Assembly: GCA_046598345.1 (NCBI GenBank)
Contig: JBKJIT010000004.1
Span: 69,702 to 133,701 of the forward strand
Length of the DNA stretch: 64,000 nt
Origin: Minisyncoccia bacterium
Lineage (GTDB): Bacteria; Patescibacteriota; Minisyncoccia; Phycocordibacterales; UBA918
Reading direction: 5' to 3'
The notes beneath the pieces are model-generated. The model saw only the letters and a program-made list of their open reading frames with translations, was not told where the DNA came from and did no database searches. Of the stretch, positions 39,752 through 58,758 are shown one piece after another. Position 1 is the stretch's first letter. Each line of letters begins with the position of its first letter. Position numbers and translations under genes: made by a program.

Positions 39752-41722
39752 ATGAACTTATACACGTTTAAATCTGAGCAACTTTCGCACAGGTTGAAGA
39801 AAGCATGGGGTGGAGGAGCACTCACGCCCCAACTTATTGCTATAACACTCACCATATCAATTCTAGGTACATTTGGTTTCTTAATGGCACTCGTAAGCCC
39901 ACTCGCGGCAGAGGCAGCTGAAAGTTGTACTGCCCTCACGATTACGAGCGGGGGAGATACAAACACAGCGGGCTGGACTGCTACTAATCCAGTAGCGAAT
40001 CCGCTTAGTGACGCTGCATATAGTGGTGGATCCCAAAGTGATGCATTTGCTACAGAAGCAGTGATCCCACCGTGGGTTAATCCAGCGACTGCGCCAACAT
40101 TTGTAGGGTCTGGAGCACTCTGGGTATCGAGCGATGACTCGTGGCCAGGAGGCACGGGAAATACTGAAGGAGCAGCCACCACAAGTCAGTGGCGACTCTT
40201 TGAACATACCTTTGCACTTCCTTCTGGCGCAACTGTAGCCTCAGCAACACTCTGGTATGCAGCAGACAATGCAGCAGCAGTATATGTAGATGGAAATGCT
40301 ACACCAATTGATTACACAGGAAGCATGGCGGATGTGTTCGGTGCTACGACAAGTGCTGCGTCACACTACGATGAGGTCTATATGACCAACTTCGATGCAA
40401 GTGCTGGTACAAATACACTCAATTTCGTAGTGCGCAATTGGTCAACTGATGCGTCTACAAATCCAACAGGTCTACTCTACAAAGCAGTCGTGAACTATTG
40501 CGTGCCCGTAACACCCGATGATGTTACGGTAACAGTTTTGAAATACGTTGACGGCATGATGGCTACAGGAAGCTCTACAGGCAATGCAGACTTCACTATG
40601 CAGTCAACATGGGATGCAGACAACATTGGTACGGGAACCGGAAGCTTTGTTCTTAACGAGAATAATAGTCCGACACCCTACAAGGCAGTGACCGCAACAA
40701 TGACGCCAGGCGCAAACTACACTGTGTCAGAGACCATGAACGATACTGTGGGAGCAAATTGTGCTGCGGGTAAACCATTTGCCTTCACGGGTTACAGCGT
40801 GGGTGATAGCCAAAGCAGCGCAGCGTCAGCAACGCCGACTACCACGGCACCAAACCTTACAAATATAATGACTGACAAGACGATCATTATTTGGAACGAA
40901 GAATGTGACGCAACGACTACACCCGGCACCGTCATGGTCTCTATTCACAAGTTTGTAGAAGGAATGATGGCGACCGCAAGTAGTTCTAACAACCTGAGTT
41001 TCCCACTTCGCTCAGAATGGGATGCGACAAATATCGGGACAGGGACTGCACAGTTCACATTGAACGCTTCTACAACGATGGCGTATATGGCAACAAGCGC
41101 TGCTATGAGCCTTGGTGCTGACTACCAAGTGAAGGAGCTTGTGAATGGTGGAACTGTTGGTGCGCAATGCGCTAACGGCAAGCCCTACGCTCTTCTTGGA
41201 TACACAACTGGAAACACCTATGCCGAAGCGGCATCAAAGACACCTACAATGTCACAGCCAGTCTTTGAAAATCTTCAGTCAAATAAGCATGTAATCGTAT
41301 GGAACGACGACTGTAGTATCACAAACGGCGAGCTTCAGGTAACAAGTATCGATTCTGTCGATACGACCGCCAAGGCGAATGGTTCGTTCGCTGATGGATG
41401 GGTATATGTCTTCAATATCACTGCTCCAACCAATGAACCAAATCTCGCAATGCGTTTCAGTGATTGGCTGAAGAATGGAGGTAACGGTACTATCCCGGTT
41501 GCAAACAATATGCGCATTTCGTCTGCCCAAGCAAATAATGGAGGAGCAACGATCCTCCTTACGGGGTCAAACATCTACTCAAGTCCCGCACTTCACATGA
41601 CTGGAGATCTCTCCACAACGACTGTGGGACGACAGGTTCAAATTACAGTTGAAGTTGCTGTTCCGTCAGGAACACCGAATGGGTCGTATACAACAAATTA
41701 TGGTGTTCGGTCAACACCCTAA
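39752..41722 (+). CDS. Secreted protein with two ~130-aa tandem repeats
   Basis: Signal-anchor at probable start MNLYTF...; repeat 1 'VTVLKYVDGMMATGSS...WNEEC', repeat 2 'VMVSIHKFVEGMMATASS...WNDDC'; the ORF from 39509 carries an unlikely N-terminal extension. Confidence 0.45.
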   Translation: MNLYTFKSEQLSHRLKKAWGGGALTPQLIAITLTISILGTFGFLMALVSPLAAEAAESCTALTITSGGDTNTAGWTATNPVANPLSDAAYSGGSQSDAFATEAVIPPWVNPATAPTFVGSGALWVSSDDSWPGGTGNTEGAATTSQWRLFEHTFALPSGATVASATLWYAADNAAAVYVDGNATPIDYTGSMADVFGATTSAASHYDEVYMTNFDASAGTNTLNFVVRNWSTDASTNPTGLLYKAVVNYCVPVTPDDVTVTVLKYVDGMMATGSSTGNADFTMQSTWDADNIGTGTGSFVLNENNSPTPYKAVTATMTPGANYTVSETMNDTVGANCAAGKPFAFTGYSVGDSQSSAASATPTTTAPNLTNIMTDKTIIIWNEECDATTTPGTVMVSIHKFVEGMMATASSSNNLSFPLRSEWDATNIGTGTAQFTLNASTTMAYMATSAAMSLGADYQVKELVNGGTVGAQCANGKPYALLGYTTGNTYAEAASKTPTMSQPVFENLQSNKHVIVWNDDCSITNGELQVTSIDSVDTTAKANGSFADGWVYVFNITAPTNEPNLAMRFSDWLKNGGNGTIPVANNMRISSAQANNGGATILLTGSNIYSSPALHMTGDLSTTTVGRQVQITVEVAVPSGTPNGSYTTNYGVRSTP

Positions 41723-41748
41723 TTTATAAGCCCTAATTCTCACCTCAC

Positions 41749-42234
41749 ATGACTAGAAAACTTACAACATTCGCATTCGCTCTACTCTTCTTTGGAGTCG
41801 CATGGCTTAGCTTCTCATACGTGAACTTTGCACATGCCTCTGAGGTGACTGGTACGCTTTCTTCGGGTGGAGTAACAGCAACTACTACTGCAACAACTTC
41901 TGGAACAATTGGTGGCACTGTGACAGATGGGAGTGCATCCGGCAGCATTTCTGGTACCGTCACGGGCGGCGGTGGAGGCAGTAGTAGTGGAGGAGGAGGT
42001 CGCGGTAATAGTAGTGGTAGTGGAAGTAGTAGTGGGGGAAGTAGTGGAAATAATGGTGGAGGCGGTGGAGCCGTTCTCGGTGAATCGACTTCAATTCCTA
42101 CGTTTCCTAACGCTGGATTTGAACCCACATCTCTACCAGGCGTGATTGGTGCAATGGCACTCACTACCGCAATCATGTCGTTCCTACTCTACTTTGGATT
42201 CCGAAACAGGGAGGAAGAACTGCTTGAAGTGTAA
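41749..42234 (+). CDS. Gly/Ser/Thr-rich secreted protein with C-terminal TM anchor and charged tail (putative sortase substrate)
   Basis: Signal peptide; (G/S/T)n low-complexity region; C-terminus '...FPNAGFEPTSLPGVIGAMALTTAIMSFLLYFGFRNREEELLEV'. Confidence 0.45.
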   Translation: MTRKLTTFAFALLFFGVAWLSFSYVNFAHASEVTGTLSSGGVTATTTATTSGTIGGTVTDGSASGSISGTVTGGGGGSSSGGGGRGNSSGSGSSSGGSSGNNGGGGGAVLGESTSIPTFPNAGFEPTSLPGVIGAMALTTAIMSFLLYFGFRNREEELLEV

Positions 42235-42250
42235 ACGCGATTATTAGCCA

Positions 42251-42280
42251 CAAAAAATCCCGCGCACGCGGGATTTTTTG
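42251..42280. terminator. Bidirectional Rho-independent terminator
   Basis: AAAAAA-atcccgcg-cac-gcgggat-TTTTTT between convergent genes. Confidence 0.8.
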
Positions 42281-42296
42281 TGGCTCCTGGTTTCTC

Positions 42297-42950
42297 TTAC
42301 AGAGCTACCTCACTCATTGCATCAACACGCTCCGTAAATACAACTGTGCGCTTACTGTACACCTGCTCATTTGTAAGAAACTCCCCACCACAGGTAATCA
42401 AATTGAGCCGTGCAACACTCAAATCTCCTACAAACACCTCTCGTGGATCTGCGGTGTAATCATACGTGCGAACCTTTACTACACGAAAGACAATCGCCTC
42501 ACCATTTTCATCTGTCACTTCAACAAGGTCGCCAATATTCAGTTCATCTAGTCTATAAAATACTGCGCGCGGGACGCCTTTCCAGTTGAGATGCCCGTCT
42601 ATGACCGCGTTCCCAAGTGCACCGGGGACAGGCCCGTGCTTGTACCATGCAACATCTATTAAGTTGGTTGGTACACCCATCTCACCCGGTGTCGTTGTTG
42701 AAAGTCCTACATGCTGAATATGCGCGTCTACTTCAATCGCAGGGATAACGAGACGCATGGGAAGCGCAGGAAGGACTTCCGATAACGTTGCTTCCTCGGT
42801 ATTAAAGATAAGTATGCGAGATTCGCTTGCATGCCAAGCGTCTAGATAGAAGTATGCGAGATATGTAGAAAATATAATTGTGAGCGTTACAAAGCACGAA
42901 AGGAGGACCTGTCGCAGGATTGAAATTCGTCTAAATATGTAGGCCATCAC
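42297..42950 (-). CDS. Sortase-family transpeptidase
   Basis: N-terminal TM; catalytic His 'NAVIDGH', 'NLITCGG' (TLxTC Cys), Arg in 'SKRTVVF'. Confidence 0.7.
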   Translation of the reverse strand: MMAYIFRRISILRQVLLSCFVTLTIIFSTYLAYFYLDAWHASESRILIFNTEEATLSEVLPALPMRLVIPAIEVDAHIQHVGLSTTTPGEMGVPTNLIDVAWYKHGPVPGALGNAVIDGHLNWKGVPRAVFYRLDELNIGDLVEVTDENGEAIVFRVVKVRTYDYTADPREVFVGDLSVARLNLITCGGEFLTNEQVYSKRTVVFTERVDAMSEVAL

Positions 42951-43085
42951 AAAGCTAGCCGCACTCTTCCTCGTAGCATTATATTGACGTTTTTAGTCTC
43001 GTGTGTTGAAAAATAATACTCGTCTCTGCATTGGTACTATGCGTATGAGGAGTTGGAGTAGGAAGCTCACTTCAAAACTCCAAAT

Positions 43086-43115
43086 AAAAACAAACGCGAC
43101 CAGCTAGGTCGCGTT
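43086..43115 (-). terminator. Rho-independent terminator
   Basis: aacgcgac-cagctag-gtcgcgtt with an A-run on + (T-run on -). Confidence 0.6.
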
Positions 43116-43123
43116 CAGGTACA

Positions 43124-43393
43124 TTACCTTTTCGGCAAGCCGAAAAATGCAATGATGTGCTCGAGGGCCGCTTCTTTTGTAGTTACGATCGTGGCACGCT
43201 CCACCATGTAGGTAGCTCCTGTGAAAAATCCGAAACCACTTCCGCAGCGCCACTCGACCAGCATACAGGTACGCTCTTTCCAGATATCAATCCAGTGGAT
43301 TTGCTTTTGGTGAGAAACTTCAATCTGTGCCACAACTCCATTGAACTGTTTAAGTTTTTCGACAATCCATTCAGGTTCCGTGTGCTCACTCAT
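43124..43393 (-). CDS. hypothetical protein
   Basis: 89 aa ORF bounded by terminators on both sides. Confidence 0.3.
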   Translation of the reverse strand: MSEHTEPEWIVEKLKQFNGVVAQIEVSHQKQIHWIDIWKERTCMLVEWRCGSGFGFFTGATYMVERATIVTTKEAALEHIIAFFGLPKR

Positions 43394-43475
43394 CGTTGTA
43401 TCCTTTCATTAGAAATACAGTCTGACGTTATCCTACCCAAGTTGCCGAAAAAGGCAAATGCAGTTCATTCGCACA

Positions 43476-43507
43476 GAAAAAACGGCCCGTGCGCGGGCCG
43501 CTTTTTC
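43476..43507. terminator. Bidirectional terminator
   Basis: AAAAAA-cggcccg-tgcg-cgggccg-CTTTTT. Confidence 0.7.
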
Positions 43508-43527
43508 ACTATGCGATTGTGTCCGGA

Positions 43528-44478
43528 TTAGTACCCGTCGTATCCGCTTGGTACATCAATCTCCACACCATCAGCATTTCGAAGACGGTAGCTACCATCT
43601 GGGTTCGTTTCCACACTCCGTCCATCCGCAGCATTAATGCTCGCATCGCTTCCATTAATATTAGCTGAGCCGTTATCTCCGCTTGAGTTCACGTTACCCA
43701 TAATGTCGACGCTTGCGTTGAACTCACTCCGATCAATACTGTTTCCTCCAATTTCCATAAATGCATTTTGGATCTCAGTATTGCTGTCGGTGTCGTAATA
43801 TTTCCCGCATCCATTTTCTGCGATGTCACTGAGCTGAGCCTCCACCATGCCTCCTACACCAAGTCCAATAACCTGCGTTTTAATACCCATTTCACAGAGC
43901 ATTTTAGCCACCTGGATTGGATTTCCTCCACAGGTTTCTTCACCGTCGCTGAGGAGTACTACCGTATTGTCATCACCTCCTGCGCGTTTCAGAATATCGT
44001 GCGCCTTTGTAAGCGAATCAGCAATTGGTGTCCATCCTGTAGGCATAAGATTGTTGATGTACCCTTGTGCTACAGAAACATTCACTGGACCCAATGGAAA
44101 TACTTCCTCAATTCCTGCACATGAAATATTCTTCTTAGCCTGTGAATTATCTCCCTTGTGGCCGTACACCACGACACTGAGTCGGACATTTTCTGTGAGA
44201 CCTGCAATAAATTTTGAAGCAGCAGTCTTAGCTACGTTAATCCGACTTTCTCCGGATGGAACCTTTTCTGCCATACTTCCTGAGTCATCAAATACAAGTA
44301 CCATGTGTTTTACTGGATCGTTCGCATCGTCCTTCATGGCCAAATCTCCTTCGCCCGTCTTGGTATTCGTAGTAACCCCTGTATCTAAGCTGACGTTCGG
44401 GAAAAACATTTTGAGTGCAATCGCGCCAAGCAAAATGACAACAATGACTCCTATTCCTATAACTACCTTCGAATTCAT
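43528..44478 (-). CDS. von Willebrand factor type A (VWA) domain protein, membrane-anchored
   Basis: N-terminal TM; MIDAS 'LVFDDSGSM', '...LLSDGEETCGG'. Confidence 0.75.
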   Translation of the reverse strand: MNSKVVIGIGVIVVILLGAIALKMFFPNVSLDTGVTTNTKTGEGDLAMKDDANDPVKHMVLVFDDSGSMAEKVPSGESRINVAKTAASKFIAGLTENVRLSVVVYGHKGDNSQAKKNISCAGIEEVFPLGPVNVSVAQGYINNLMPTGWTPIADSLTKAHDILKRAGGDDNTVVLLSDGEETCGGNPIQVAKMLCEMGIKTQVIGLGVGGMVEAQLSDIAENGCGKYYDTDSNTEIQNAFMEIGGNSIDRSEFNASVDIMGNVNSSGDNGSANINGSDASINAADGRSVETNPDGSYRLRNADGVEIDVPSGYDGY

Positions 44479-47470: not shown

Positions 47471-47498
47471 GTGACCAACGTTAGAGTGAATTGGAACC
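47471..47498 (-). promoter_or_regulatory. Conserved 28-nt upstream motif (copy 1) GTGACCAACGTTAGAGTGAATTGGAACC
   Basis: 24/28 identical to 49399-49426; both lie 70-76 nt upstream of - strand gene starts. Confidence 0.35.
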
Positions 47499-47952: not shown

Positions 47953-48062
47953 CTCAGTGAGTGGAGTAGAATCGAAGCTTACAGCTTCAGTACCCGTTAC
48001 GGCTACTTTTCTTCACTGCGCTCTAAAAGATAGCTTGCAACGGCTTCGATTCCCTGGACTAT

Positions 48063-48089
48063 GCTCCATTGGTCAGCCCTATGACAACA
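48063..48089 (+). repeat. 27-bp motif GCTCCATTGGTCAGCCCTATGACAACA (copy 1), left boundary of the KaiC cassette
   Basis: 26/27 identical to copies at 55979, 56034 and 56531; contains the stop codon of the GAF kinase. Confidence 0.6.
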
Positions 48090-49323
48090 TCTCAACCCTC
48101 GCAGCCTCTCTATGGTCATTCTTTTGAAGTGGAAGTGAAAATGAAAATATCGAACCTACCCCTAGCTCACTCTGGACATCCAGTGTTCCATTATGAGCCT
48201 TAATGATATCGCTACAAATATAAAGGCCGAGACCTAGGCCAATCGTTTTCGTGTCAGTTCGTACTCGGTAGAATCGATCAAATATTTTAGTACAATCTGC
48301 TTTAGCGATACCGTGACCAAAATCCTTTACACTTACTATAGCTTCAGAACTTGTCTGATTAACAGTAATTTCGATTCTTTCTGATTGTGGAGCATATTTA
48401 ATTGCATTGCCTAGCAAGTTAGTTAACACTTGGGTTATTTTATCTTTGTCTGCGTGAACAATAAGGTTTGTATGCGAATACATGAGTACAAATTTTTGCG
48501 ATGAGTGATTTTGAAAATAGTTAACTGCATCGTTAACAAGCTGATTTAGATCGAAGTTTTCTTTTTGCAGATGTACTTCTCCATTTTTGAGGGCACGTAT
48601 ATCAAAAAGACGAGTCACAAGCGAGTCGAGATGATCTATTTGGGTATCAATGTTCCCAACATCCATATCTAAATCCTCGGAATTGTTTGTGGAAAGTTTG
48701 TGTTGCAACAATTGTGTATATGCTTTCAAACTTGTAAGAGGTGTTCTAATTTCATGAGCAGCTATTAAGACAAACTCGTCCAATGCGGATGCTGCTTGAC
48801 GTAATTCAATTTCAGTCAGCACGGATTTCGACAGTTCGACTAAGATTTCTAATTCATCTTCAGTCCAGATTCTTTTCTTATAATCAACTACACAGCACGT
48901 ACCAAGAATAAGCCCTTGTTTTGTGATAAGCGGAATGCCTGCGTACGCAACTACACCTAGGTAATGCACCGAGGGGAAGTGACGAAAAATTTCTGATTCG
49001 CGTGCGTCCTCCAAGACAAGTGGTTCACCACTGTCGACAATATGCTGGCAAAATGATGGGTGGGCAGTAATTTCTCTACTTTCCGCAAGTGGAGCAGGGA
49101 GCCCGAAATGACTCTTTAAAAAATCACGATCCTTTTCAAGTATTGTCACAAACGAAATGGGGGTTTTAAGGAGTTTCGATGCTAATCGTGTAAGCCGGTC
49201 AAACGCCTCTTCTTCGCCAGTATCAATTAAATTTATTTTCTTTACAGCATTTAATCGACGCGCATTATTGACCGTATCACGAATTTTTTTGATGTGACCA
49301 TCTATGGGAGAATCATTCGACAT
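48079..49323 (-). CDS. GAF-domain sensor histidine kinase
   Basis: GAF region; HisKA 'IAAHEIRTPLTSLKAYTQLL'; HATPase_c 'LLGNAIKYAP...VKDFGHGI...GLGLGLYICSDIIKAHNG'. Confidence 0.8.
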   Translation of the reverse strand: MSNDSPIDGHIKKIRDTVNNARRLNAVKKINLIDTGEEEAFDRLTRLASKLLKTPISFVTILEKDRDFLKSHFGLPAPLAESREITAHPSFCQHIVDSGEPLVLEDARESEIFRHFPSVHYLGVVAYAGIPLITKQGLILGTCCVVDYKKRIWTEDELEILVELSKSVLTEIELRQAASALDEFVLIAAHEIRTPLTSLKAYTQLLQHKLSTNNSEDLDMDVGNIDTQIDHLDSLVTRLFDIRALKNGEVHLQKENFDLNQLVNDAVNYFQNHSSQKFVLMYSHTNLIVHADKDKITQVLTNLLGNAIKYAPQSERIEITVNQTSSEAIVSVKDFGHGIAKADCTKIFDRFYRVRTDTKTIGLGLGLYICSDIIKAHNGTLDVQSELGVGSIFSFSLPLQKNDHREAARVEMLS

Positions 49324-49398
49324 AAAGCAATTATATATTAAAACGAGTATTTGAGGTAAAAATGAAAATTTTCATCTCGTATTCATTTTTCCCTATAG

Positions 49399-49426
49399 GT
49401 GACCCACATTAGTGCGAATTGGAACC
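49399..49426 (-). promoter_or_regulatory. Conserved 28-nt upstream motif (copy 2) GTGACCCACATTAGTGCGAATTGGAACC
   Basis: See copy 1; 76 nt upstream of the GAF-kinase start, in the divergent region shared with kaiC. Confidence 0.35.
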
Positions 49427-49614
49427 AACTATTCAAAAACATGTTGATATTTGATTAATCGAGAACAGACGATTCATGATTATTTCATCGGAGTCGAGTA
49501 AACTACTTTAGTGTGATCGCACTGTCGAAAGAAGAATGGCGTACCTTCTCGTGAAACAAGCATTAATCGGAACATTATCAGAGCACAACGATTCCCTAAG
49601 ATTATGATTATTGT

Positions 49615-51123
49615 ATGCCTAAAACTCCTAAGAAAAAACTTGCCTCTAACCAGAAGCACTTAGACAAATGCCCCACTGGCATCAAAGGCTTAGACGAGGT
49701 TACCGAAGGCGGGTTTCCGAAAAATAGAACCACATTAATTTCCGGAGGTGCCGGCTCTGGAAAAACCCTTTTGGGGATTGATTTTCTTATCAAAGGTGCA
49801 AGCGATTTTAACGAGCCAGGCGTCTTCATGTCCTTTGAGGAGACACAAGATGACCTGTATAAAGATGTGGCTTCTCTAAGCCTTGATTTACCAGGACTTG
49901 TTTCACGAAAAAAGATTCTGATTGAGCATGTGATTCTCGATCGCAAAGATATTCGAGAGGGCGACTTCAATCTTGAGGGGATACTCGTTCGTCTGGAACA
50001 TGCCATTGATTCGATTGGAGCAAAACGCATTGTTTTAGATTCTATCGAATCTCCCTTTGCAAGCATCGCCGATGCCGGCATTCTTCGAATAGAGATCAAA
50101 AGACTTTTTAAGTGGCTTAAAGACAAACACGTTACAGCAATCGTTACTGGCGAGCCAGGACGAGGTGCGTATACTCGTCATGGCCTCGAGGAGTTCGTCT
50201 CCGACTGCATTATTCTGCTCGATAATAGAGTTAAAGAACAAATTGCTATCCGTAGACTTCGTATCGTCAAATATCGGGGTTCAAACCATGGAACAAACGA
50301 ATATCCATTCGTCATTGATCAATCGGGGCTTTCTGTAATTCCGATCACCTCAGCAGGACTTAATCAGCCGGGCATTGCCAAAAAAGTCTCAACAGGAATT
50401 CCATCGTTGGACAAAATGTTTAAGGGAAAACCCGGATATACCAAAGGCAGCACGATACTGGTTTCGGGCACTGCAGGCACAGGCAAAACAAGCCTGGCTG
50501 CTGCATTCGCACTAGCGAGCTGTAAACGGGGAGAGCGGTGTCTATTCTTGTCGTATGAAGAATCTTCCGGGCAACTCATACAAAACATGAGTTCTATAGG
50601 TATTCATTTTGAGCCCTGGGTAAAAAAAGGACTCTTAAAGATTGTCTCGGTGAGGCCTTCTTTTTTTGGCCTAGAGATGCACTTGCTTGATTTATACAAG
50701 CTTGTTGACAGTTTTAAACCAAAATCTGTCGTCATAGATCCTCTGACGAGTCTCATTGGAGAGGGGGACGAGCGTGAAATCAGATCTATGATCACTCGCA
50801 TGATTGACCTCTTAAAGTCGAAAGCCATCACTACGTTTTTCACATCTCTTGTTTCTGCATCACAGTATAATGACACGAGCGGTGAGATCGGCGTTTCTTC
50901 CCTAATAGACACGTGGATCGTAGTGAGAGAATTAGAAGAAGAAGTAGGAAAAAAACGTATTCGTGGAATCTTCATTGTGAAGTCTCGTGGCACTGGGCAT
51001 GAGAGTGACGTCCATAAGTTGATTTTGAGTGATGATGGAATTAGCATAATACCCATGGATCTTGCGAGCGCCAATGCGAAAAACAAGAATGACAAGAAGT
51101 TTACCCCTACCCCCCCCTCATGA
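49615..51123 (+). CDS. kaiC: KaiC-like double-RecA-domain ATPase
   Basis: Two Walker A motifs (ISGGAGSGKTLLG; VSGTAGTGKTSLA); catalytic-Glu-like 'SFEETQDD' and 'SYEESSGQ'; C-terminal 'GVSSLIDTWIVVRELEE' aligns with the KaiC phosphosite loop. Confidence 0.8.
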   Translation: MPKTPKKKLASNQKHLDKCPTGIKGLDEVTEGGFPKNRTTLISGGAGSGKTLLGIDFLIKGASDFNEPGVFMSFEETQDDLYKDVASLSLDLPGLVSRKKILIEHVILDRKDIREGDFNLEGILVRLEHAIDSIGAKRIVLDSIESPFASIADAGILRIEIKRLFKWLKDKHVTAIVTGEPGRGAYTRHGLEEFVSDCIILLDNRVKEQIAIRRLRIVKYRGSNHGTNEYPFVIDQSGLSVIPITSAGLNQPGIAKKVSTGIPSLDKMFKGKPGYTKGSTILVSGTAGTGKTSLAAAFALASCKRGERCLFLSYEESSGQLIQNMSSIGIHFEPWVKKGLLKIVSVRPSFFGLEMHLLDLYKLVDSFKPKSVVIDPLTSLIGEGDEREIRSMITRMIDLLKSKAITTFFTSLVSASQYNDTSGEIGVSSLIDTWIVVRELEEEVGKKRIRGIFIVKSRGTGHESDVHKLILSDDGISIIPMDLASANAKNKNDKKFTPTPPS

Positions 51124-51145
51124 GCAAGGAGTAATGTCGTAACAC

Positions 51146-51733
51146 ATGAAAACACTACGACCCAACTTCATTGTCGGTATTGGGGGCTCGGCCGGAGCTC
51201 TTAACGCATATAAGGCGCTCTTGGATGCCACGCCGCCCAAAACAGGGATGGCCTTAGTCATTATTTCTCATATGAATCCCGCCGCCAGCAGTGAGTTAGC
51301 GCACATTCTGTCGCGTCACACGAAAATGCCGGTCATGGTTGCTACCCAAGCGATGCCAGTCCGAAAGAATCACATCTACGTTATCGCCCCGAACTCGGAT
51401 ATTTACATTGAAAAATATACTTTCAAAGTCGTCTCCCCGCGCACAGAGAGGAATAAGCAAATAGATCTGTTTTTGACTTCGTTAGCAGAGGCTATGGGGG
51501 CACATGCTATCGGCGTTATCCTTTCGGGATTTGGTGGTGACGGTACGGAAGGATGCAAAAACATCAAAGCAAACAGGGGAACAACCTTTGCTCAGGACAA
51601 CTCGGCCGAAGTAGACGACATGCCGCTCAGTGCCCAGGCTTCAGGCTGTATTGATTTCGTTCTGCCACCTGACAAAATTTCAGTTGAACTACAAAAAATA
51701 GTAGGGACACACCTACGCGCCAACCGGGTTTAG
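51146..51733 (+). CDS. Stand-alone CheB-type protein-glutamate methylesterase (catalytic domain only)
   Basis: 'IVGIGGSAGA' Ser, 'ISHMNP' His, 'GFGGDGTEG' Asp; no receiver domain. Confidence 0.7.
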   Translation: MKTLRPNFIVGIGGSAGALNAYKALLDATPPKTGMALVIISHMNPAASSELAHILSRHTKMPVMVATQAMPVRKNHIYVIAPNSDIYIEKYTFKVVSPRTERNKQIDLFLTSLAEAMGAHAIGVILSGFGGDGTEGCKNIKANRGTTFAQDNSAEVDDMPLSAQASGCIDFVLPPDKISVELQKIVGTHLRANRV

Positions 51734-52105
51734 CGTGCCCGTACCCAAATGCTTTCCGACTGTAGTTAGCATATCCTGCATGGTATACGGCTTTTCCATA
51801 AAACCGTTTGCACCCGCTTCAAGTGCTGAGGCAGATGCATCAGGGTATGCCGAAATCATGATGATGGGAATATGTTTTGTGACTTGACGTGTTTTCAAAT
51901 GCCTGCAAACGTCAAGTCCGTTTACTCCTGCCATCCAGATGTCGAGGAGAATGAGATCGGGAAACGGGGCGTTTATTTTTTTGACCTCTTCTCCATTCAT
52001 GATCGAAGTTACTTCATACCCGCCATATTGAAGGACCATGGTAAGAGAAGCGACAATACCGTCATTGTCATCTGCCACTAAAACTTTTTTCTTTTGTTTA
52101 GCCAT
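51713..52105 (-). CDS. Single-domain response regulator (CheY-like receiver)
   Basis: 'KKVLVADDN', phospho-acceptor in 'LILLDIWMAG', 'IIMISAY', 'GFMEKPY'; 21-nt convergent overlap with the CheB gene. Confidence 0.85.
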   Translation of the reverse strand: MAKQKKKVLVADDNDGIVASLTMVLQYGGYEVTSIMNGEEVKKINAPFPDLILLDIWMAGVNGLDVCRHLKTRQVTKHIPIIMISAYPDASASALEAGANGFMEKPYTMQDMLTTVGKHLGTGTLNPVGA

Positions 52106-52147
52106 ATTGACCTTTTCATCTATTCAACAGAGGTGTTCATGTAGATG

Positions 52148-55100
52148 TCATGAATTTGCAGTGGCCTTACGTTTTGTTAGCTGTGGGAGGGGAAGTGTAA
52201 AGGTGAATGTAGAACCTTTACCTAAGATACTTTCGACCAGTATCTTGCCCTCGTGTTTCTCGATGATCTGGGCCGCAATAAATAATCCGAGCCCGAATCC
52301 TTCTGCTTTTTCACTCTTTGCAAAGCCGTTCTTTTCTTTTCCTCGGTAAAAGCGCTCAAAGATCGTTTTATGATCTGCCTTTTCAATCCCCAAGCCGAAG
52401 TCCTGAATGCTTACCACTGCATCTCCCGCATGTTCGCCCACGTGTACAATTACTTTTTTTCCGACAGGCGAATATTTGATTGCATTCGTGAGTAAGTTTA
52501 TCACCACCTGCTCAATGCGACTTGCATCAGCTACGACATGTCGTTTTACTCTGCCTTCTAGCGTAATCGTATGGTGCAGCGTGGTTTCCTTGATCGCACT
52601 TACAGTGCGTTCCATGAGTTTGTTGAGATCAAACTCTTCTTTATTAATTAAAAATTTTCCTGCTTGCATTTGGCTGAAACTCAGTAGATCACCGACCAAG
52701 TTCGTAAGCCTATCGCTCTGAGTGATGATGTGCTCAAGAATGACTGCGCTCTCTTTCTTTACGCTGCCTGAGAGCTTTTTTTGCAAAAGCTCGGTAAATG
52801 TCTTGATAGTTGTGACGGGCGTCTTTATTTCATGCGAGGCAATACCGATAAACTCCTCTTTCTGTTGCTCAAGTTCTTTGCGTCCGGTGATGTCGACAAA
52901 ACAATTAATCGCTCCGGTTATTTCTTCTTTTTCATTTTTAATTGGACGAATATTGATGATGACAGTGACCCGCGAACCATCGGGGCGCGCAATCTGAACT
53001 TCCAGATCACGTGCCTCGGGAATCTTGCCAGATAACACCTCGGCCATCGGAGTTACCTCGTGGGGCATGAACGTGCCGTCGGAGCGGTACAATTTGAACG
53101 AACCCCAGAAGCGCTCGTCGGTATCGCCACGCTGCGGGCTGCGGCCCCACAATTCCGTAGCATTGTGGTTGAAATCCCGAATCACGCCGTTTGCATCGCA
53201 GGAATAGAGCGCGATGGGGCCTAAGTCGAATAAAATGCGGTAGCGCTCTTCATTCTCTATAATTTTTTGATGAGCGAGAGCTTGTTCGGTTATATCCTCA
53301 ATGGCAAGTAGAATAAGCCCCGTTTTCCCTGCATCTTGAATCAGTTTGCGAGCATTCAAAAGGAGTACCTTGTGACCAATTGAGGGAAAGGTGTGCTCAA
53401 TCTCAAAGTTTTCCAATTTCGTATTTTTGGGTAGGATCTCCGTCAAAAGTGTGCGTAATTTTGGAATGTCCCACTGCCCATTGCCCAATTCGTAGAGGAA
53501 ATTTCCTTCCGTTTGCTCCTTTGATACCTGGAATGTCCGAAAAAAAGATTCATTCGCGCTTCTCACTCGCAAGTCGCTGTTGATGACGATTAACGACCCT
53601 CGCACCGTTTCAATAATCGCCTCAGTATATGCGCGGGACTCGTTCAGTTGCTCATTGCGTGTTTGCAGCTCTTGATTAATCGTGTTGAGCTCTTCGTTGG
53701 TTGACTCAAGTTCTTCACCGGACGTTTCCAATTCCTCATTGATACTCTGCAGCTCTTCGTTGCTTGAAAGGATTTCCTCGTTTGCAGATTGCAGCTCCTC
53801 AACTGCAGCTTCCTGTTCTTCCGCGAGGGATCGCTCGTTGTCACGTACCTGAGCAAGTTCTTTCTCGAGCACAGCGCTCCTACGGCTCTCCGTCTTCGAC
53901 CTACGAACGTTAGAGGCAGTCTGGCGGAGTGGAGAGTCCGCGGTATCGACTCTCTCTGGAGCCGTATGAAATATAACTAGGAAATGACGCTCTGCAGAAG
54001 TTTTATTTAAAGGAATCACTTCAATCGAGATGGCGTGTGCATGTGTTTCTGTCAGCAGCGTAACTTCTCTTTTAATAGAAAGACTGGTCCTTTTTGCTTT
54101 TAGAATTGCGCCGCGAAGCTCGGATATCAACCCTGCTCGCGCTACTTTTAAAAGATTGAATGTCGCTTTTCCCGTTGGAAATTGGAGATATTCCCCCGTG
54201 TCGCCTCGGAACTGCAGGATCTCATACTCGGCGTTAACCAGAACGCTCGCCGGCGCAAAGCGCCCGACCAGAATGGCATCAGCCTCATCTTGAATTCCAA
54301 TCGTCCGTGCAAGGGGAGTAGTCTCTCGGCTTGAGGGAGTGCGCTGTCGGCCCATCGCGCGCTCCTCGCGCGGAATAACGTCGGGTAATACTTTTCTCGT
54401 CCCAGTTTTTTTTGTGAAGACTTTACTTTTTTTCACAACCGGAATGAAGAGCTTTGGCGTCACCCCCACTGATTCTGATTTTCCTAGGATCAATACTCCC
54501 TCGCTCACAAGTGCATAATGAAGAGCCGACAAAATCCTATACTGCAAGCTCGTGTCCATATAGATAAGAACATTGCAGCAACTAACGATATCAATCCGCG
54601 AAAACGGCGGATCTTTCAGCAGATTGTGCAATGAAAAAACGCACATATCCCGTACATCCCTTCGTATTTGATATGCGCCATTTGTTTCGACGAAGTACCG
54701 CTCGAGACGTTGCGGTGACACGCCAATCACATCGCTTTTCGTGTATGTTCCGTGACGAGCCTTCGCAATTGCGACTTGGGCCAAATCAGTGCCAAATATT
54801 TGTAGAGGGATAGAGAGCGATTTGCTACTCATGAAGTCCAAAACAGTGATAGCAAGTGAATAGACCTCTTCTCCAGTTGCGCATCCCGCCACCCAGATGC
54901 GCAGAGGTTCTTTAGCGGTCTTGGCTTTAATCAGCTTCGGGAGAAGCTTTTGAGTTAAGGTGTTCAATGCAACTGGGTCTCGGAAGAAATCAGTAACATG
55001 TATGAGAATATCATTAAAGAGCGCGTCAGCTTCGGTGCCATTTCCCCGCAGAAAATTGAGGTAGTCTGCTGCAGTTTCCATCTTATTGATGATCATCCTG

Positions 55101-55900
55101 CGAGTGATACGTCGCGTCAGAGTTGTCTCTTTATAGTGGCTGAAGTCCACGCCGGTAGCCCGCAGAAGCTCCGCGATAATCCGCCGGTAATCGTCGAGTT
55201 TATGCAACTCTGTTTTAGAAAGTTCCGAATCACCCATCGTTACAAGCGGATGCTCGCTGAGGAGAGCGAGCTCTTCCGCTATTCTTTGCGGGGACAGCAC
55301 ATAATCAACGACGCTCGCTGAAATGGCAGATTGCGGCATGCTCTGATATTTTGCCGTAGTATCTTGCGCGAACGTGAGTCCGCCAGCCTCTTTTATCGCT
55401 CGCAGTCCTACCGTGCCATCGCTCGCAGTCCCCGAGAGCACAACTCCGATAGCTTTCTCCTGCCTTTCACTGACGAGCGAGATAAAAAAGTCATCGATGG
55501 GCATATTGAGCAATCCTTTTTCTTTCGGACGTGACAAGAGCATAAGCCTTTCTCCCTTGAGGGTCATGCACTTACCCGGCGGAATAACATAAATATGATC
55601 CGATGTAACGAGCGTTCCATTTTTCACTTCTGTGACAGGAATCTGAGTAAATCGTGCGAGTAACTCCACAAGCATACTTTTGTGGAGTGGGTCCAAATGT
55701 TGTATGAGGACATACGCCATGCCGGTTTTGAGCGGCAGAGATTCAATAAGGTTGCCAAATGCCTCGAGCCCACCCGCCGAAGCTCCTATACCAACAATGG
55801 GAACCGGTTGTAGGGTTTGTGTTTTCCTGCTACGCCGTACAAGAGCAGGTCTTTTTTTGCTTTTCTTGTCTAGCATACTCCTCGGTTTCATACCACCCAT
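52148..55900 (-). CDS. Multidomain CheB methylesterase / CheR methyltransferase / PAS / coiled-coil / histidine kinase fusion
   Basis: CheB 'IVGIGASAGGLEAF...IQHLDP...SGTASDGTVG'; CheR 'LRIWVAGCATGEEVYSLAI'; 'EELQSANEEILSSNEELQSINEELETSGEELESTNEEL' heptad repeat; HisKA 'IASHEIKTPVTTI'; HATPase_c 'LLTNAIKYSP...IQDFGLGI...GFGLGLFIAAQ'. Confidence 0.8.
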   Translation of the reverse strand: MGGMKPRSMLDKKSKKRPALVRRSRKTQTLQPVPIVGIGASAGGLEAFGNLIESLPLKTGMAYVLIQHLDPLHKSMLVELLARFTQIPVTEVKNGTLVTSDHIYVIPPGKCMTLKGERLMLLSRPKEKGLLNMPIDDFFISLVSERQEKAIGVVLSGTASDGTVGLRAIKEAGGLTFAQDTTAKYQSMPQSAISASVVDYVLSPQRIAEELALLSEHPLVTMGDSELSKTELHKLDDYRRIIAELLRATGVDFSHYKETTLTRRITRRMIINKMETAADYLNFLRGNGTEADALFNDILIHVTDFFRDPVALNTLTQKLLPKLIKAKTAKEPLRIWVAGCATGEEVYSLAITVLDFMSSKSLSIPLQIFGTDLAQVAIAKARHGTYTKSDVIGVSPQRLERYFVETNGAYQIRRDVRDMCVFSLHNLLKDPPFSRIDIVSCCNVLIYMDTSLQYRILSALHYALVSEGVLILGKSESVGVTPKLFIPVVKKSKVFTKKTGTRKVLPDVIPREERAMGRQRTPSSRETTPLARTIGIQDEADAILVGRFAPASVLVNAEYEILQFRGDTGEYLQFPTGKATFNLLKVARAGLISELRGAILKAKRTSLSIKREVTLLTETHAHAISIEVIPLNKTSAERHFLVIFHTAPERVDTADSPLRQTASNVRRSKTESRRSAVLEKELAQVRDNERSLAEEQEAAVEELQSANEEILSSNEELQSINEELETSGEELESTNEELNTINQELQTRNEQLNESRAYTEAIIETVRGSLIVINSDLRVRSANESFFRTFQVSKEQTEGNFLYELGNGQWDIPKLRTLLTEILPKNTKLENFEIEHTFPSIGHKVLLLNARKLIQDAGKTGLILLAIEDITEQALAHQKIIENEERYRILFDLGPIALYSCDANGVIRDFNHNATELWGRSPQRGDTDERFWGSFKLYRSDGTFMPHEVTPMAEVLSGKIPEARDLEVQIARPDGSRVTVIINIRPIKNEKEEITGAINCFVDITGRKELEQQKEEFIGIASHEIKTPVTTIKTFTELLQKKLSGSVKKESAVILEHIITQSDRLTNLVGDLLSFSQMQAGKFLINKEEFDLNKLMERTVSAIKETTLHHTITLEGRVKRHVVADASRIEQVVINLLTNAIKYSPVGKKVIVHVGEHAGDAVVSIQDFGLGIEKADHKTIFERFYRGKEKNGFAKSEKAEGFGLGLFIAAQIIEKHEGKILVESILGKGSTFTFTLPLPQLTKRKATANS

Positions 55901-55976
55901 TGTACGCGCGCCCGTGGAAATAGATAGGGTTTATTTTAAGCTAATTCGAGCCGTACACGGGCATGCTTGGAGAACC

Positions 55977-56090
55977 TAGCTCCATAGGTCAGCCCTATGA
56001 CAACAGAAAAAATTAATACGTCAAGATTTGTTAGCTCCATAGGTCAGCCCTATGACAACAGAAAAAATTAATACGTCAAGATTTGTGACC
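55977..56090 (+). repeat. Two tandem 57-bp units, each beginning with the 27-bp GCTCCATAGGTCAGCCCTATGACAACA motif
   Basis: 55977-56033 and 56034-56090 near-identical; third copy at 56530-56586. Confidence 0.7.
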
Positions 56091-56246
56091 TCCCGGAAAA
56101 TCGGGGTCAAGTTCCTAAGCTCGTTGCGACTCGCTAAGAACTTTCTCCCCGGTCTCCCTCGAGTAGGCTCTCAGTCCGACTTTCGATTCTCCTGGACTAA
56201 AATAGTAAAACCCCGCACAAGGCGAGGCTTTACTATTTCAGTGACC
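56085..56246 (+). repeat. Distal copy of ~160-bp unit: degenerate tRNA-Glu 3'-end copy (gtgacctcccggaaaatcg) + terminator-containing segment
   Basis: Near-identical to 56582-56737; ends with a partial 'gtgacc'. Confidence 0.6.
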
Positions 56247-56339: not shown

Positions 56340-56537
56340 CTATAGAGAGTTATATGCCTCAACTTGATTATCATATTCAAACTTCACCATCTGAAAGTTC
56401 ATACCCCACTTATTTTTTGCTTTTACCATAATGTTTGGGTGCGCTGTTTGAGCCATTACCCAATCATATGCCTCAACTTGATTATCATATTCAAACTTCA
56501 CCATCTGGTAGTTGTCACCCCATTTTTGTAGCTCCAT
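56340..56537 (-). CDS. doubtful small ORF with internal repeat (YQMVKFEYDNQVEAY x2)
   Basis: 41-bp DNA direct repeat at 56353 and 56468; start codon lies inside the 27-bp motif; may be non-coding. Confidence 0.15.
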   Translation of the reverse strand: MELQKWGDNYQMVKFEYDNQVEAYDWVMAQTAHPNIMVKAKNKWGMNFQMVKFEYDNQVEAYNSL

Positions 56538-56581
56538 AGGTCAGCCCTATGACAACAGATAAATTTAATACGTCAAGTTTT

Positions 56582-56737
56582 GTGACCTCACGGAGAATCG
56601 GGGTCAAGTTCCTAAGCTCGTTGCGACTAGCTAAGAACTTTCTCCCCGGTCTCCCTCGAGAAGGCTCTCAGTCCGACTTTCGATTCTCCTAGACTAAAAT
56701 AGTAAAACCCCGCACAAGGCGAGGCTTTACTATTTCA
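56582..56737 (+). repeat. Proximal copy of ~160-bp unit beginning with an exact 19-nt copy of the tRNA-Glu 3' end
   Basis: gtgacctcacggagaatcg at 56582-56600 equals 56738-56756; remainder equals 56104-56246. Confidence 0.6.
56703..56724 (-). terminator. Rho-independent terminator just 3' of tRNA-Glu
   Basis: On - strand: CCTCGC-CTTGT-GCGGGG + TTTT; duplicated at 56204-56225. Confidence 0.55.
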
Positions 56738-56738
56738 G

Positions 56739-56810
56739 TGACCTCACGGAGAATCGAACTCCGATTTGCTGGATGAGAACCAGCTGTCCTAACCGTTAGA
56801 CGATGAGGCC
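56739..56810 (-). tRNA. tRNA-Glu (anticodon CUC)
   Basis: Manual fold: acceptor GGCCTCA/TGAGGTC, D-arm TCGTCTAACGGTTAGGACA, anticodon stem-loop GCTGG-TTCTCAT-CCAGC, T-arm CGGAG-TTCGATT-CTCCG, discriminator A; no encoded CCA. Confidence 0.8.
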
Positions 56811-57045
56811 GTATATTTGATTTTCACTAAACCGCAAGTTTATAAGAATGAGTGAGAAGTGATTTTATATCACTTCGCAAGACTTTGACAGATATTTTGT
56901 TAAAAATATCTGTCAAAGTGGACAGTCGCTGTAAGCGATCGTAAAAGAGTATCCCACACTCTTTTACTCCCATCCGTTGACGATCATGCCGACTTGATTT
57001 GAACGGCATAGTTATACCAGATTTACTCTCTTTATTAAAGAGAGG

Positions 57046-58758
57046 ATGGACTCCTGTATACTAGAGGACATGACACAGAAACAGGCGCTTGAGATACTTA
57101 AAACGGGAGCAAATGTGTTCCTAACCGGAGAACCCGGAGCAGGAAAGACGTATGTTCTGAACGAGTACATCGAGTGGCTCATGGACCACGACATCAGTGT
57201 GGCCATTACCGCATCGACCGGAATCGCAGCGACGCATATTGGCGGTATGACTATCCACTCGTGGAGTGGTATTGGCGCGAGAGACACCTTGAATCAGTAC
57301 GACTTAGACGCAATCATCAGCAAAGAAAAAACCATGAAGCGTCTTCAGAAGGCGAAGGTCTTGGTGATTGATGAAATCTCCATGCTCGATGGGAGGGTGC
57401 TCGATATGGTCGAAACAGTGTGCCGGGTTGGCCGGGGAAATGGAGATTCGTTTGGTGGACTCCAAATCATTCTCGTTGGGGATTTTTTTCAGCTGCCACC
57501 AATCGCAGGGAGGGGAGAGATGTCTCGTTTTGCGTTTGAGTCACGCTCGTGGGAAAGTGCAAAATTCCTCACGAGTTATCTCACAGAGCAGCATCGCCAA
57601 GAAGACGATCTCCTCCTTGGGCTTCTGTCGTCCATCCGCAAAAATGACGTTGAGGAATCTCACTACACACTCCTTTCTGAGCAAACAGAAATTGGGTTTC
57701 CTGATATCGAACCTACGAAGCTCTACACGCACAACAGCGATGTCGATGCGGTCAATTTAGAAAAACTGCGAGGGCTCACCACTTCTGGTGCAACATTCAA
57801 AATGGCTGCACGAGGGAATAAGCAGCTCCTCGTTGGACTCGTAAAGAATTGCCTCTCACCCGAAGTACTCGAACTCAGAAAGGATGCGATGGTGATGTGT
57901 ACGAAGAATAATTTTGAGGTTGGGTATGTAAACGGAACACTCGGTCGTGTCACCGCTTTTGACAAGGAAGACGGGTACCCAATTATCGAGACGAGTGACG
58001 GACGTTCGCTTAAGATTTTACCGACTACGTGGACTATCGGAGAAGATGGAAAGCTTCTCGCTGAGATTTCTCAGGTACCACTTCGTCTTGCGTGGGCTAT
58101 CACGATACATAAGAGTCAGGGAATGTCGCTCGACGCTGCTGAAATTGATCTTCGGAATGCGTTCACGTACGGGCAAGGCTACGTTGCGTTATCACGTGTA
58201 CGCACACTTACGGGGATGAAAGTGCTCGGTCTTAACTCCCAAGCGCTTCTTGTGGATCCTCGGGTCGTGCATCGTGACGCGCGCTTCCGCGAGGAGTCAG
58301 AAGATGGTGAGTCTGCGTTCAATGAAATGGAAGAAGGCGAGATCGAGGGTATGCAAAAGAGCTTTGTACTTGCAACTGGTGGCACATGGGAAGTTGAAGA
58401 GAGAAAGGAGCGTGGGAATCGTGCTGTTTCCTCTCGCCTTGAAAAAGAAAACACCTTTCTTACCACTAAAGCCCTCATTGAAAAGAGACTTACTCCTGAG
58501 GCTATTGCACGCGAGCGAAAAATGGCACTTTCCACTATTTGGTCACACATCGAAAAGCTTTCCGACGAAGGGGCAATTTCAAAAGACGACCTTCAGGGTC
58601 TCATTCCATCAAACATTTCGTGGCCCGCGATTTACCCAGACATCGCCTCCGCATTTCTGAAACACGGCACAGAAAAACTTAAGCCAGTCTATGAAGAGCT
58701 CAAGGAGGCGTATGATTATGATTTAATTCGCCTTGGACGTATTCTCTACAAGAAATAA
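57046..58758 (+). CDS. Pif1/RecD-family ATP-dependent DNA helicase with C-terminal HTH-like domain
   Basis: Walker A 'LTGEPGAGKTY', Walker B 'VLVIDEISM', 'ILVGDFFQLPP', 'ITIHKSQGMS'. Confidence 0.7.
   Translation: MDSCILEDMTQKQALEILKTGANVFLTGEPGAGKTYVLNEYIEWLMDHDISVAITASTGIAATHIGGMTIHSWSGIGARDTLNQYDLDAIISKEKTMKRLQKAKVLVIDEISMLDGRVLDMVETVCRVGRGNGDSFGGLQIILVGDFFQLPPIAGRGEMSRFAFESRSWESAKFLTSYLTEQHRQEDDLLLGLLSSIRKNDVEESHYTLLSEQTEIGFPDIEPTKLYTHNSDVDAVNLEKLRGLTTSGATFKMAARGNKQLLVGLVKNCLSPEVLELRKDAMVMCTKNNFEVGYVNGTLGRVTAFDKEDGYPIIETSDGRSLKILPTTWTIGEDGKLLAEISQVPLRLAWAITIHKSQGMSLDAAEIDLRNAFTYGQGYVALSRVRTLTGMKVLGLNSQALLVDPRVVHRDARFREESEDGESAFNEMEEGEIEGMQKSFVLATGGTWEVEERKERGNRAVSSRLEKENTFLTTKALIEKRLTPEAIARERKMALSTIWSHIEKLSDEGAISKDDLQGLIPSNISWPAIYPDIASAFLKHGTEKLKPVYEELKEAYDYDLIRLGRILYKK

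Follow-up and report, generated by a model that had tools for sequence, protein, structure and literature searches.

A kaiC-cheB signalling block beside a tRNA-Glu gene in a Paceibacterota chromosome, and its probable insertion

The window analysed here, a stretch of 64,000 nucleotides (nt) from contig JBKJIT010000004.1, carries beside its tRNA-Glu(CTC) gene a block of about 8 kb in which five signalling genes, one of them a homologue of KaiC, stand between copies of a 27-bp repeat. KaiC homologues outside the cyanobacteria are poorly understood, and their partners have mostly been guessed from gene context. The locus raises the question of how the block came to stand beside this tRNA gene, and of which of its genes belong together. 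The block was most likely inserted beside the tRNA-Glu gene. The conserved unit within it is a two-gene operon, kaiC followed by a cheB that lacks a receiver domain. The most notable parts are the strict pairing of KaiC with CheB, its presence in genomes of the candidate phyla radiation (CPR), and a heptad coil in the fusion kinase of the block; the island itself is ordinary.

The genes of the block, and the coil encoded within the last of them, are as follows.

48079-49323, minus strand: GAF-HisKA-HATPase_c histidine kinase, 414 amino acids (aa)
49615-51123, plus strand: two-domain KaiC, 502 aa
51146-51733, plus strand: stand-alone CheB methylesterase domain, 195 aa, starting 22 nt after kaiC
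51713-52105, minus strand: single-domain response-regulator receiver (REC), 130 aa
52148-55900, minus strand: CheB-CheR_N-CheR-PAS-PAS-HisKA-HATPase_c fusion kinase, 1250 aa
53636-53827, minus strand: heptad coil of the fusion kinase (residues 692-755), made up of nine xxEELxS-type heptads, some with QE or EQ pairs, and visible as a repeat in the DNA as well

The five gene calls and their domains, first proposed in an earlier note made from the letters and translations alone, were all confirmed by Pfam; those of the fusion kinase were found with E values of 6e-51 to 1e-12. Its statement that genes for KaiB, CheA, CheW and chemoreceptors are absent holds for every annotated open reading frame (ORF) of at least 150 aa in the window.

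KaiC matched PF06745 in two stretches (E = 4.7e-110). Its score with the NCBIfam model NF006799 was 611.6 bits, above the cut-off of 408, and that with the cyanobacterial model TIGR02655 was 304, under the cut-off of 546. Walker A motifs are located at residues 47 (GSGKT) and 288 (GTGKT), and catalytic glutamate pairs at 75-76 (SFEET, from 73) and 315-316 (SYEES, from 313). The phosphosite pair S428/S429, in GVSSLIDTW from residue 426, aligns with the Ser-Ser pair of Rhodobacter KaiC. The closest solved relative is the KaiC of Rhodobacter sphaeroides (E = 6e-148), and Synechococcus KaiC is further away (E = 5e-82). A search of the window and of 84 related loci with a KaiB query sequence gave no KaiB-like ORF. 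The stand-alone CheB (PF01339, E = 8.7e-48) consists of the catalytic domain only, without the N-terminal receiver domain. Its Ser-His-Asp triad, in the motifs GGSAG, SHMNP, and GGDG respectively, aligns with that of the CheB chains 6ymz and 3sft.

The heptads of the fusion kinase include AVEELQS, ANEEILS, SNEELQS, INEELET, SGEELES, TNEELNT, INQELQT, and RNEQLNE, and the fusion kinases of L002, L114, and L119 have conserved them (loci on other contigs bear L numbers here). Heptad-spaced EE, QE, and EQ pairs are a hallmark of the methylation helices of chemoreceptors such as Tar and Tsr. By this analogy, the coil is a candidate for a built-in methyl-accepting coiled coil.

The conservation of the gene order was compared over the 84 KaiC loci, of which four came from protein look-ups and 80 from a metagenome scan. 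In all 73 loci with room, that is, with at least 650 nt after kaiC, a stand-alone cheB (60-76% aa identity) lies directly downstream on the same strand, and its start is visible in 8 of the 11 loci that are too short after kaiC. Nucleotide conservation of 77-85% spans exactly 49606-51704, from the ribosome-binding site of kaiC to the end of cheB. Around kaiC in the 84 loci, no other neighbour family recurs; neither the GAF kinase nor the receiver is a conserved partner of kaiC-cheB. CheR is adjacent in 7 of the 84 loci, always within a CheB-CheR-kinase fusion and on either side of kaiC; among the seven loci having at least 5 kb on both sides, it is adjacent in one. The five genes had been read as a single cassette in the earlier note. 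This reading has to be abandoned, since only kaiC and cheB are conserved together in the related loci.

More than 8000 strong homologues of this KaiC were found. The best 120 of them are 77-100% identical to it, with metagenome-assembled genome (MAG) labels such as Oligoflexia, Fibrobacterota, Gammaproteobacteria, Methylotenera, and Arcicella. Two loci, L001 and L085 (KaiC 92% identical), belong to another Paceibacterota, the FtsZ of which is 73-77% identical to FtsZ of Paceibacterota, Adlerbacteria, and Patescibacteria. In L001, kaiC-cheB lies beside a Y1 transposase gene and a few kb from ftsZ and ftsA. The pair is at another locus there, and therefore the module occupies different places in two CPR genomes.

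Some further features of these loci were observed. The transposase gene of L001 (3656-4279), directly after cheB, is of the IS200/IS605 or REP-associated type. In L002 (11417-12268), L003, and L004 (KaiC 90%), an ice-binding protein gene and a second, divergent stand-alone cheB are found just beyond kaiC-cheB. The contigs L109 and L134, which carry related KaiC, are labelled as microbial-mat metagenome.

The gene content of the window identifies it as part of a Paceibacterota (CPR) chromosome. Backbone genes include priA, murA, mrdA, lysS, ftsI, two mreB, mreC, greA, frr, and def; the lineage is divergent, because most of them score under the curated cut-offs. The PIF1 helicase gene that adjoins tRNA-Glu (57046-58758) has relatives in Patescibacteria MAGs only, labelled Paceibacterota, Kaiserbacteria, or "Saccharibacteria", with up to 76% aa identity. 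The best matches of PIF1 and its neighbouring genes are all from Patescibacteria MAGs (50-87% aa identity). The genes to the right of PIF1 (YgjP-like, TruB, YqeY, RmuC-like) are syntenic in relatives at 50-87% identity, in the order tRNA-Glu-PIF1-YgjP-TruB-YqeY-RmuC. The tRNA-Glu(CTC) gene is located upstream of the helicase and on the opposite strand in L005, L009, L010, L012, L015, L017, and L018. Between the tRNA and the helicase gene of the window there is a perfect 17-bp inverted repeat, ACTTTGACAGATATTTT / AAAATATCTGTCAAAGT (56882-56919), 72-109 nt upstream of the tRNA.

The elements around the block, from left to right, are the following; X, A, and B are described below.

47957-48062, minus strand: relic of the X element, homologous to a structured element adjoining tRNA-Glu in relatives, with a decayed tRNA 3' end at 47957-47978
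48063-48089, plus strand: left 27-mer, separated from the end of the X homology by 7-9 nt
49399-49426, minus strand: 28-nt motif GGTTCCAATTCnCnCTAAnGTnGGTCAC upstream of the GAF kinase, loosely like a tRNA 3' end (T-arm and acceptor end)
55977-56086, plus strand: A1 and A2, two tandem 55-bp units, each with a copy of the 27-mer; A1 ends 78 nt upstream of the start codon of the fusion kinase
56085-56246, minus strand: B1, 162 nt long, with a copy of the tRNA terminator hairpin at its start and a 17/19 copy of the tRNA-Glu 3' end (56085-56103) at its end
56340-56537, minus strand: 65-aa ORF, with its ATG inside A3
56529-56583, plus strand: A3, a third 55-bp unit, carrying the fourth copy of the 27-mer
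56582-56743, minus strand: B2, 162 nt and 95% identical to B1, after the tRNA and its terminator hairpin, ending in a 19/19 copy of the tRNA-Glu 3' end (56582-56600)
56738-56810, minus strand: tRNA-Glu(CTC), whose synteny with PIF1 extends to the relatives

Four copies of the 27-mer, GCTCCATWGGTCAGCCCTATGACAACA, are present in the window (at 48063, 55979, 56034, and 56531), with 0.00 copies expected by chance. The two copies at the borders of the block, GCTCCAT(T/A)GGTCAGCCCTATGACAACA at 48063-48089 and 55979-56005, are identical in 26 of 27 positions. Further copies are found at 56034-56060 and 56531-56557, and one base sets the left copy apart from the other three. The left copy, which on the reverse complement reads TGTTGT-CATAGG-GCTGA-CCAATG-GAGC, overlaps the TAG stop of the GAF kinase ORF (48079-49323, minus strand) and the three codons before it. 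The core of the 27-mer is a 6-5-6 palindrome, CATAGG-GCTGA-CCTATG, and the identity among the copies stops sharply on both sides of the repeat. The left copy stands 7.9 kb from the cluster of the others, exactly at the far border of the block. Accordingly, a match beyond chance and a left copy fused to the kinase stop codon, both asserted in the earlier note, agree with the present results; the block is indeed located between the copies at 48063 and 55979, but there are four copies, not two. No match of the 27-mer was found in the genome collection or in viral contigs.

On the tRNA side, the repeats are more complex. A 220-nt direct repeat (56027-56246 and 56524-56743, 95% identical) includes the last two 55-bp units, and each of its copies carries one partial 3' end of tRNA-Glu(CTC). 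The right copy of the 27-mer had been placed beside tandem repeats that duplicate the tRNA 3' end: the 55-bp tandem is present, but the tRNA-end copies belong to the 220-nt repeat. In the 19-mer copies, identity with the tRNA begins inside the T-loop and runs to the discriminator base. Each B element begins with a box complementary to the T-arm and common to X (AGTCyAGGrGAATCGAA); the B elements had no match outside the window in 2 Mb of loci from relatives. The tRNA-end copies mark off segments of only 156 and 497 nt, and on the far side of the block there is just the decayed copy within X. When the minus strand is followed, the order is tRNA, terminator hairpin, B2, A3 with its 27-mer, the 65-aa ORF, a copy of the terminator, B1, A2, A1, the fusion kinase gene, the rest of the block, the left 27-mer, X, and a DUF4116 gene. 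What brackets the block is thus the innermost pair in a small family of local repeats. The 65-aa ORF has no Pfam family match and contains an internal duplication of 19 aa (KWGxNxQMVKFEYDNQVEAY twice; in the DNA, a 60-nt repeat at a spacing of 114 nt) and is possibly a gene fragment. The only other copy of the 28-nt motif in the window is at 47471-47498 (minus strand), upstream of an 83-aa ORF. The motif is suggestive only, of either an old attachment (att) scar or a common promoter element.

The relatives show what usually adjoins this tRNA. Window 47969-48050 aligns with L019:7-88 at 87% identity and with L017:6306-6360 at 82%, and in both of these loci the X-like sequence lies directly downstream of tRNA-Glu. 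The alignment ends about a dozen bases before the left 27-mer. A stretch of 25 nt in X is identical in the window, L017, and L019, whereas the helicases are only 53-57% identical; this 25-nt motif had no match in viral contigs. An X profile built from the three copies also matches beside tRNA-Glu in L010, L013, and L018, so that X adjoins tRNA-Glu in five relatives. One extra match, in L069, has no tRNA nearby. In the window, the profile match ends at 48054-48056, 7-9 nt from the 27-mer. The copies outside the window are as follows.

L017:6288-6432, minus strand: X copy
L019:1-108: X copy
L010:8370-8446: X copy
L013:2849-2930: X copy
L018:6269-6320: X copy

X is 100-150 nt long across several Paceibacterota genomes. 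For the L017 copy, the folding energy is -76.8 kcal/mol (z = -9.85), and the copy in the window is decayed (folding z = -0.9). The internal hairpin covaries, with CTATCTTTT/AGAAAAGTAG in the window and CAGATTGG/CCAATCTG in L017, and the loop GAGCGCAGCGAA is conserved. Within the element, the tRNA 3' end of the same genome is copied both directly and inverted in L017, and likewise, in a different form, in L005. X had no match to an Rfam family; in the Rfam search of B and X elements, only tRNA was found, the other matches being at chance level. X could be an unrecognised RNA, a recombination site, or a miniature mobile element. The labels of integron, insertion sequence (IS), and miniature inverted-repeat transposable element (MITE) were rejected: there is no integrase or transposase, and no extra copies were found in the 2 Mb of related loci. 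For an integron cassette, no integrase or integron feature was found, and B and X are imperfect palindromes without an Rfam family.

The DNA to the left of tRNA-Glu, 38.6-56.7 kb of the window, is variable between relatives. The left backbone, ftsI and a Mur ligase gene (35575-38587), is 18 kb from tRNA-Glu in the window, and the same backbone is only 1.2-8 kb from the tRNA or helicase in L010, L013, L014, and L015. No homologue of the 38.6-56.7 kb stretch was found at the matching position in any relative, and none of KaiC, CheB, or the fusion kinase in 80 PIF1 loci from relatives. The gap in the relatives is filled by unrelated accessory genes (GNAT acetyltransferase, U32 peptidase, serine hydrolase, AIPR abortive-infection protein, surface protein). 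The AIPR gene, a defence gene, was seen at L018:4213-5967 and suggests that the zone downstream of tRNA-Glu gathers accessory genes. In the window, the block and the A and B repeats stand between tRNA-Glu and its usual neighbour X; insertion is therefore favoured.

The simplest reading of this comparison is that the block would have been inserted between tRNA-Glu and X. A 27-mer is found at both junctions: the left one joins the 3' end of the kinase gene to X, and the right one is 78 nt upstream of the big kinase gene. The flanks would fit a reciprocal exchange, in which A1 links "spacer" sequence to the region upstream of the fusion kinase and the left copy links the kinase 3' end to X. The 6-5-6 layout of the palindrome is like that of recombinase core sites, and a site-specific recombinase probably acted on this core. 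Such an enzyme would have acted in trans, because none is encoded in the window. Afterwards, the junction on the tRNA side seems to have been amplified locally into the 55-bp tandem and the 220-nt repeat with its partial tRNA 3' ends, which would account for the four copies of the 27-mer. Acquisition next to a tRNA is an ordinary kind of event; it is the anatomy of the repeats that is unusual.

A working model can also be put forward for the signalling itself. KaiC would be an autophosphorylating ATPase of the Rhodobacter type, operating here without KaiB. It might gate the free CheB esterase/deamidase, by way of its activity or its access, in place of the receiver domain of classical CheB. 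The fusion kinase would be a self-contained methylation-adaptation unit: its CheR domain would methylate its own coil and its CheB domain would strip the methyl groups. The level of methylation, together with the PAS input, would set the output of the kinase to the receiver protein, and the kaiC-cheB operon would supply a second eraser governed by the state of KaiC. The fusion kinase is likely to be the substrate of its own methylation chemistry, because it carries CheB, CheR, and nine EE/QE heptads like those of chemoreceptor methylation helices.

Taken jointly, an insertion of the block between tRNA-Glu and X, kaiC-cheB as the conserved unit, and the putative mechanisms of recombination, amplification, and signalling constitute the best explanation, and we lean towards it with modest confidence. 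Several points weigh against it. No gene for an integrase, recombinase, or transposase was found in 38.6-57 kb or in the rest of the window, or by a Pfam scan of ten ORFs in the variable zones of L005, L010, L013, L015, L017, and L018. The composition of the block is not atypical (tetranucleotide z of -0.2 to 1.5, GC like that of the flanks). Because of these two results, the mechanism of the insertion is something that we infer. The four copies of the 27-mer are those within the 64-kb window. As a 5' arm of X, the 27-mer was not significant in the shuffle test (96 of 1000 shuffles equalled the L019 alignment, and other alignments were no better than chance); a relation to the complement of the tRNA 3' end was not significant either. 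The relatives are distant (50-76% aa identity in PIF1), so that the absence of the block could equally be a loss. No closer relative was present in the databases searched and no true empty site was seen, because the left-flank protein is without a close homologue: among 5.8 billion proteins, the DUF4116 protein matched only itself and one other at 47%. The entire 18 kb to the left of the tRNA is non-syntenic, not the block alone. Furthermore, kaiC-cheB and the fusion kinase are only loosely linked, CheR being rarely adjacent, and the roles of KaiC, CheB, and the heptad coil are ones that we infer. The suggestion in the earlier note of an insertion module near a tRNA was thus upheld by the synteny of the relatives and the displacement of X, but not by the tests it had proposed: the comparison of composition with the flanks gave no signal, and a true empty site was not seen.

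The repeats and the block can be explained in other ways. The 27-mer might be a cis-regulatory site, either part of a promoter or an operator bound by a protein dimer, which was copied upstream of the minus-strand fusion kinase, the 65-aa ORF, and the DUF4116 gene. All four copies are indeed upstream of minus-strand ORFs, the core is a 6-5-6 inverted repeat, and a weak match to -35/-10 elements overlaps the left copy. However, the distances to the start codons are inconsistent (78 nt, an overlapping ATG, and 110-147 nt), promoter-like matches are no commoner in the region than in shuffles (11 versus 14.9), and the left copy is partly inside a coding region. Such a site would also leave unexplained why X, which elsewhere is next to the tRNA, stands 8.7 kb from it here; a regulatory origin is considered unlikely. 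Similarly, little probability is given to the view that there was no insertion at all, the block being old, vertically inherited, and lost or unsampled in distant relatives, with the repeats as by-products of local duplication or slippage in an unstable region beside the tRNA. The uniform composition of block and host, the lack of a mobility gene, and the distance of the relatives, only 50-76% identical in PIF1, would agree with it, and local duplication in the region is clear from the 55-bp tandem, from the 220-nt repeat, and from the small ORF with its internal duplication of 114 nt. Slippage, however, does not yield a 26/27 match 7.9 kb away at the far border of the block, X adjoins tRNA-Glu in five separate relatives and is displaced by the block here, and kaiC-cheB occupies another locus in the second Paceibacterota contig, while elsewhere its contexts are unrelated. 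An assembly chimera, in which the block was joined to a CPR contig through short repeats, comes to mind with a metagenome-assembled contig that has repeats at both borders. It would require two independent false joins, and the longest exact run common to the left and right copies, 19 nt, is too short for typical final assembly k-mers. The composition matches the host, CPR-syntenic genes are found on both flanks, and the second Paceibacterota contig also has kaiC-cheB. A chimera is thus highly improbable.

The substrate of the methylation chemistry is a separate matter. CheB and CheR might modify KaiC itself, by methylation, demethylation, or deamidation of glutamates, and thereby tune its cycle of ATPase activity and phosphorylation in place of KaiA and KaiB. 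The strict linkage of kaiC and cheB, the intact CheB triad, the absence of KaiB from the window and the 84 loci (with the KaiB query), and the invariant acidic runs of this KaiC subfamily, such as RELEEE at 438-443, all point in this direction. However, CheR is usually not adjacent, and KaiC has no heptad array of EE/QE pairs, whereas the fusion kinase has nine such heptads. Modification of KaiC is therefore possible but rather doubtful, and the coil of the fusion kinase is the more economical substrate. The broader proposal of the earlier note, that CheB/CheR chemistry acts on a KaiC/kinase system, stands for CheB, which is strictly linked to the KaiC subfamily, but not for CheR, with its 7 of 84 loci. 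A more far-reaching idea can be offered tentatively, as one that may well be wrong: kaiC-cheB would be a distinct, horizontally mobile module in which a KaiC-type timer ATPase is coupled to the methyl-ester or deamidation chemistry of glutamates in place of KaiB or KaiA, which has spread across phyla into the reduced genomes of the CPR, and which sets the methylation "memory" of kinases with chemoreceptor-like coils. If true, the module merges a clock component with adaptation of the chemotaxis type, KaiC either gating the receiver-less CheB or being modified by it.

Other features along the window were noted. At 14932-16434 (minus strand), MurA (residues 69-496) seems to be fused to an N-terminal XRE-type helix-turn-helix (residues 3-66), which, given a correct start codon, is an unusual architecture. 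Among housekeeping genes, 17802-20534 encodes a 910-aa protein that weakly matches VirD4/TraD-type coupling proteins and HerA-like ATPases, and a 649-aa protein without a family match comes next. The stretch 39509-44478, the strongest tetranucleotide outlier of the window (z up to 2.5), encodes a 737-aa protein without a family match, a sortase, and a VWA-domain protein. It also contains short tandem repeats (41878-42060) and is probably a variable cluster of cell-surface genes. Window 1-6000 is a second outlier in composition, with a low GC of 0.38-0.41 and z up to 3.1. It encodes a HupE/UreJ protein, a stand-alone PAS protein, and a 447-aa protein with sub-threshold matches to a SiaA-type phosphatase and sensor histidine kinases.

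A description of a kaiC-cheB operon was not found in the searchable literature, which leaves subscription journals outside its coverage, and the operon may be described elsewhere; nothing linking KaiC with Patescibacteria was found in the same literature. For a KaiC subfamily that is widespread and very conserved, the results provide a strict, testable partner, namely the CheB-like esterase/deamidase present in every locus with room, and no KaiB was found. They also offer a concrete candidate substrate, the EE/QE heptad coil of the CheB-CheR fusion kinases. The presence of the module in at least two Paceibacterota genomes, at different loci, means that reduced bacteria of the episymbiont type do acquire elaborate timing or adaptation circuits, and the tRNA-Glu region serves as a case study of how CPR genomes gain genes without a resident recombinase.

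Finally, the locus can be compared with known systems. In the integrase-less islets linked to tRNA genes, which are cis-mobilisable and grow by accretion at an att site, the position on the 3' side of a tRNA, partial tRNA 3' ends starting from the T-loop, absence from relatives, and the lack of an integrase are as they are here. The present block differs from them: it is bracketed by a separate 27-mer, not by clean repeats of the tRNA end, and its composition does not stand out.

The KaiBC "hourglass" timer of Rhodobacter sphaeroides and Rhodopseudomonas palustris (PDB 8db3 and 8dba) has the two KaiC domains, Walker A motifs, catalytic glutamates, and Ser-Ser pair in common with the KaiC of the window, and a histidine kinase is likewise found nearby. 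Unlike in that timer, no KaiB was found in the window or the 84 loci, and a CheB-like gene takes its position in the operon. The solved full-length chains of Rhodobacter KaiC have 568 aa, versus 502 aa for the KaiC of the window; the extra C-terminal part of the Rhodobacter chains forms a coiled-coil extension. Three kaiC contexts were described by De Luca et al. in 2011, namely kaiBC with a kinase, kaiC with an "Nt_HK" kinase, and a mixed one of kaiC with receiver or other signalling genes, and none of the three includes a CheB methylesterase (PMC3164672). Common to those contexts and the present one is a non-cyanobacterial kaiC among two-component genes, without KaiA; here, however, cheB is the sole invariant neighbour.

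Chemotactic adaptation, with CheR, CheB, and the chemoreceptors, shares with the block the enzyme domains and the intact CheB triad, and the heptad EE/QE pairs in the predicted coil of the block resemble those of receptor methylation helices. It differs in that no CheA, CheW, or chemoreceptor was found among the annotated ORFs of the window, in that the stand-alone CheB has no receiver domain, and in that a PAS histidine kinase carries CheB, CheR, and the putative acceptor coil in one fusion. Fusion proteins of CheB and CheR, which we take to be the KEGG cheBR orthologue K13924, are widely annotated and, to our knowledge, uncharacterised. The same CheB-CheR-PAS-kinase architecture is found in L002, L096, L114, L119, and L127. 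What is added here is a linkage of such a fusion to a kaiC-cheB operon, with the heptad coil proposed as the candidate substrate.

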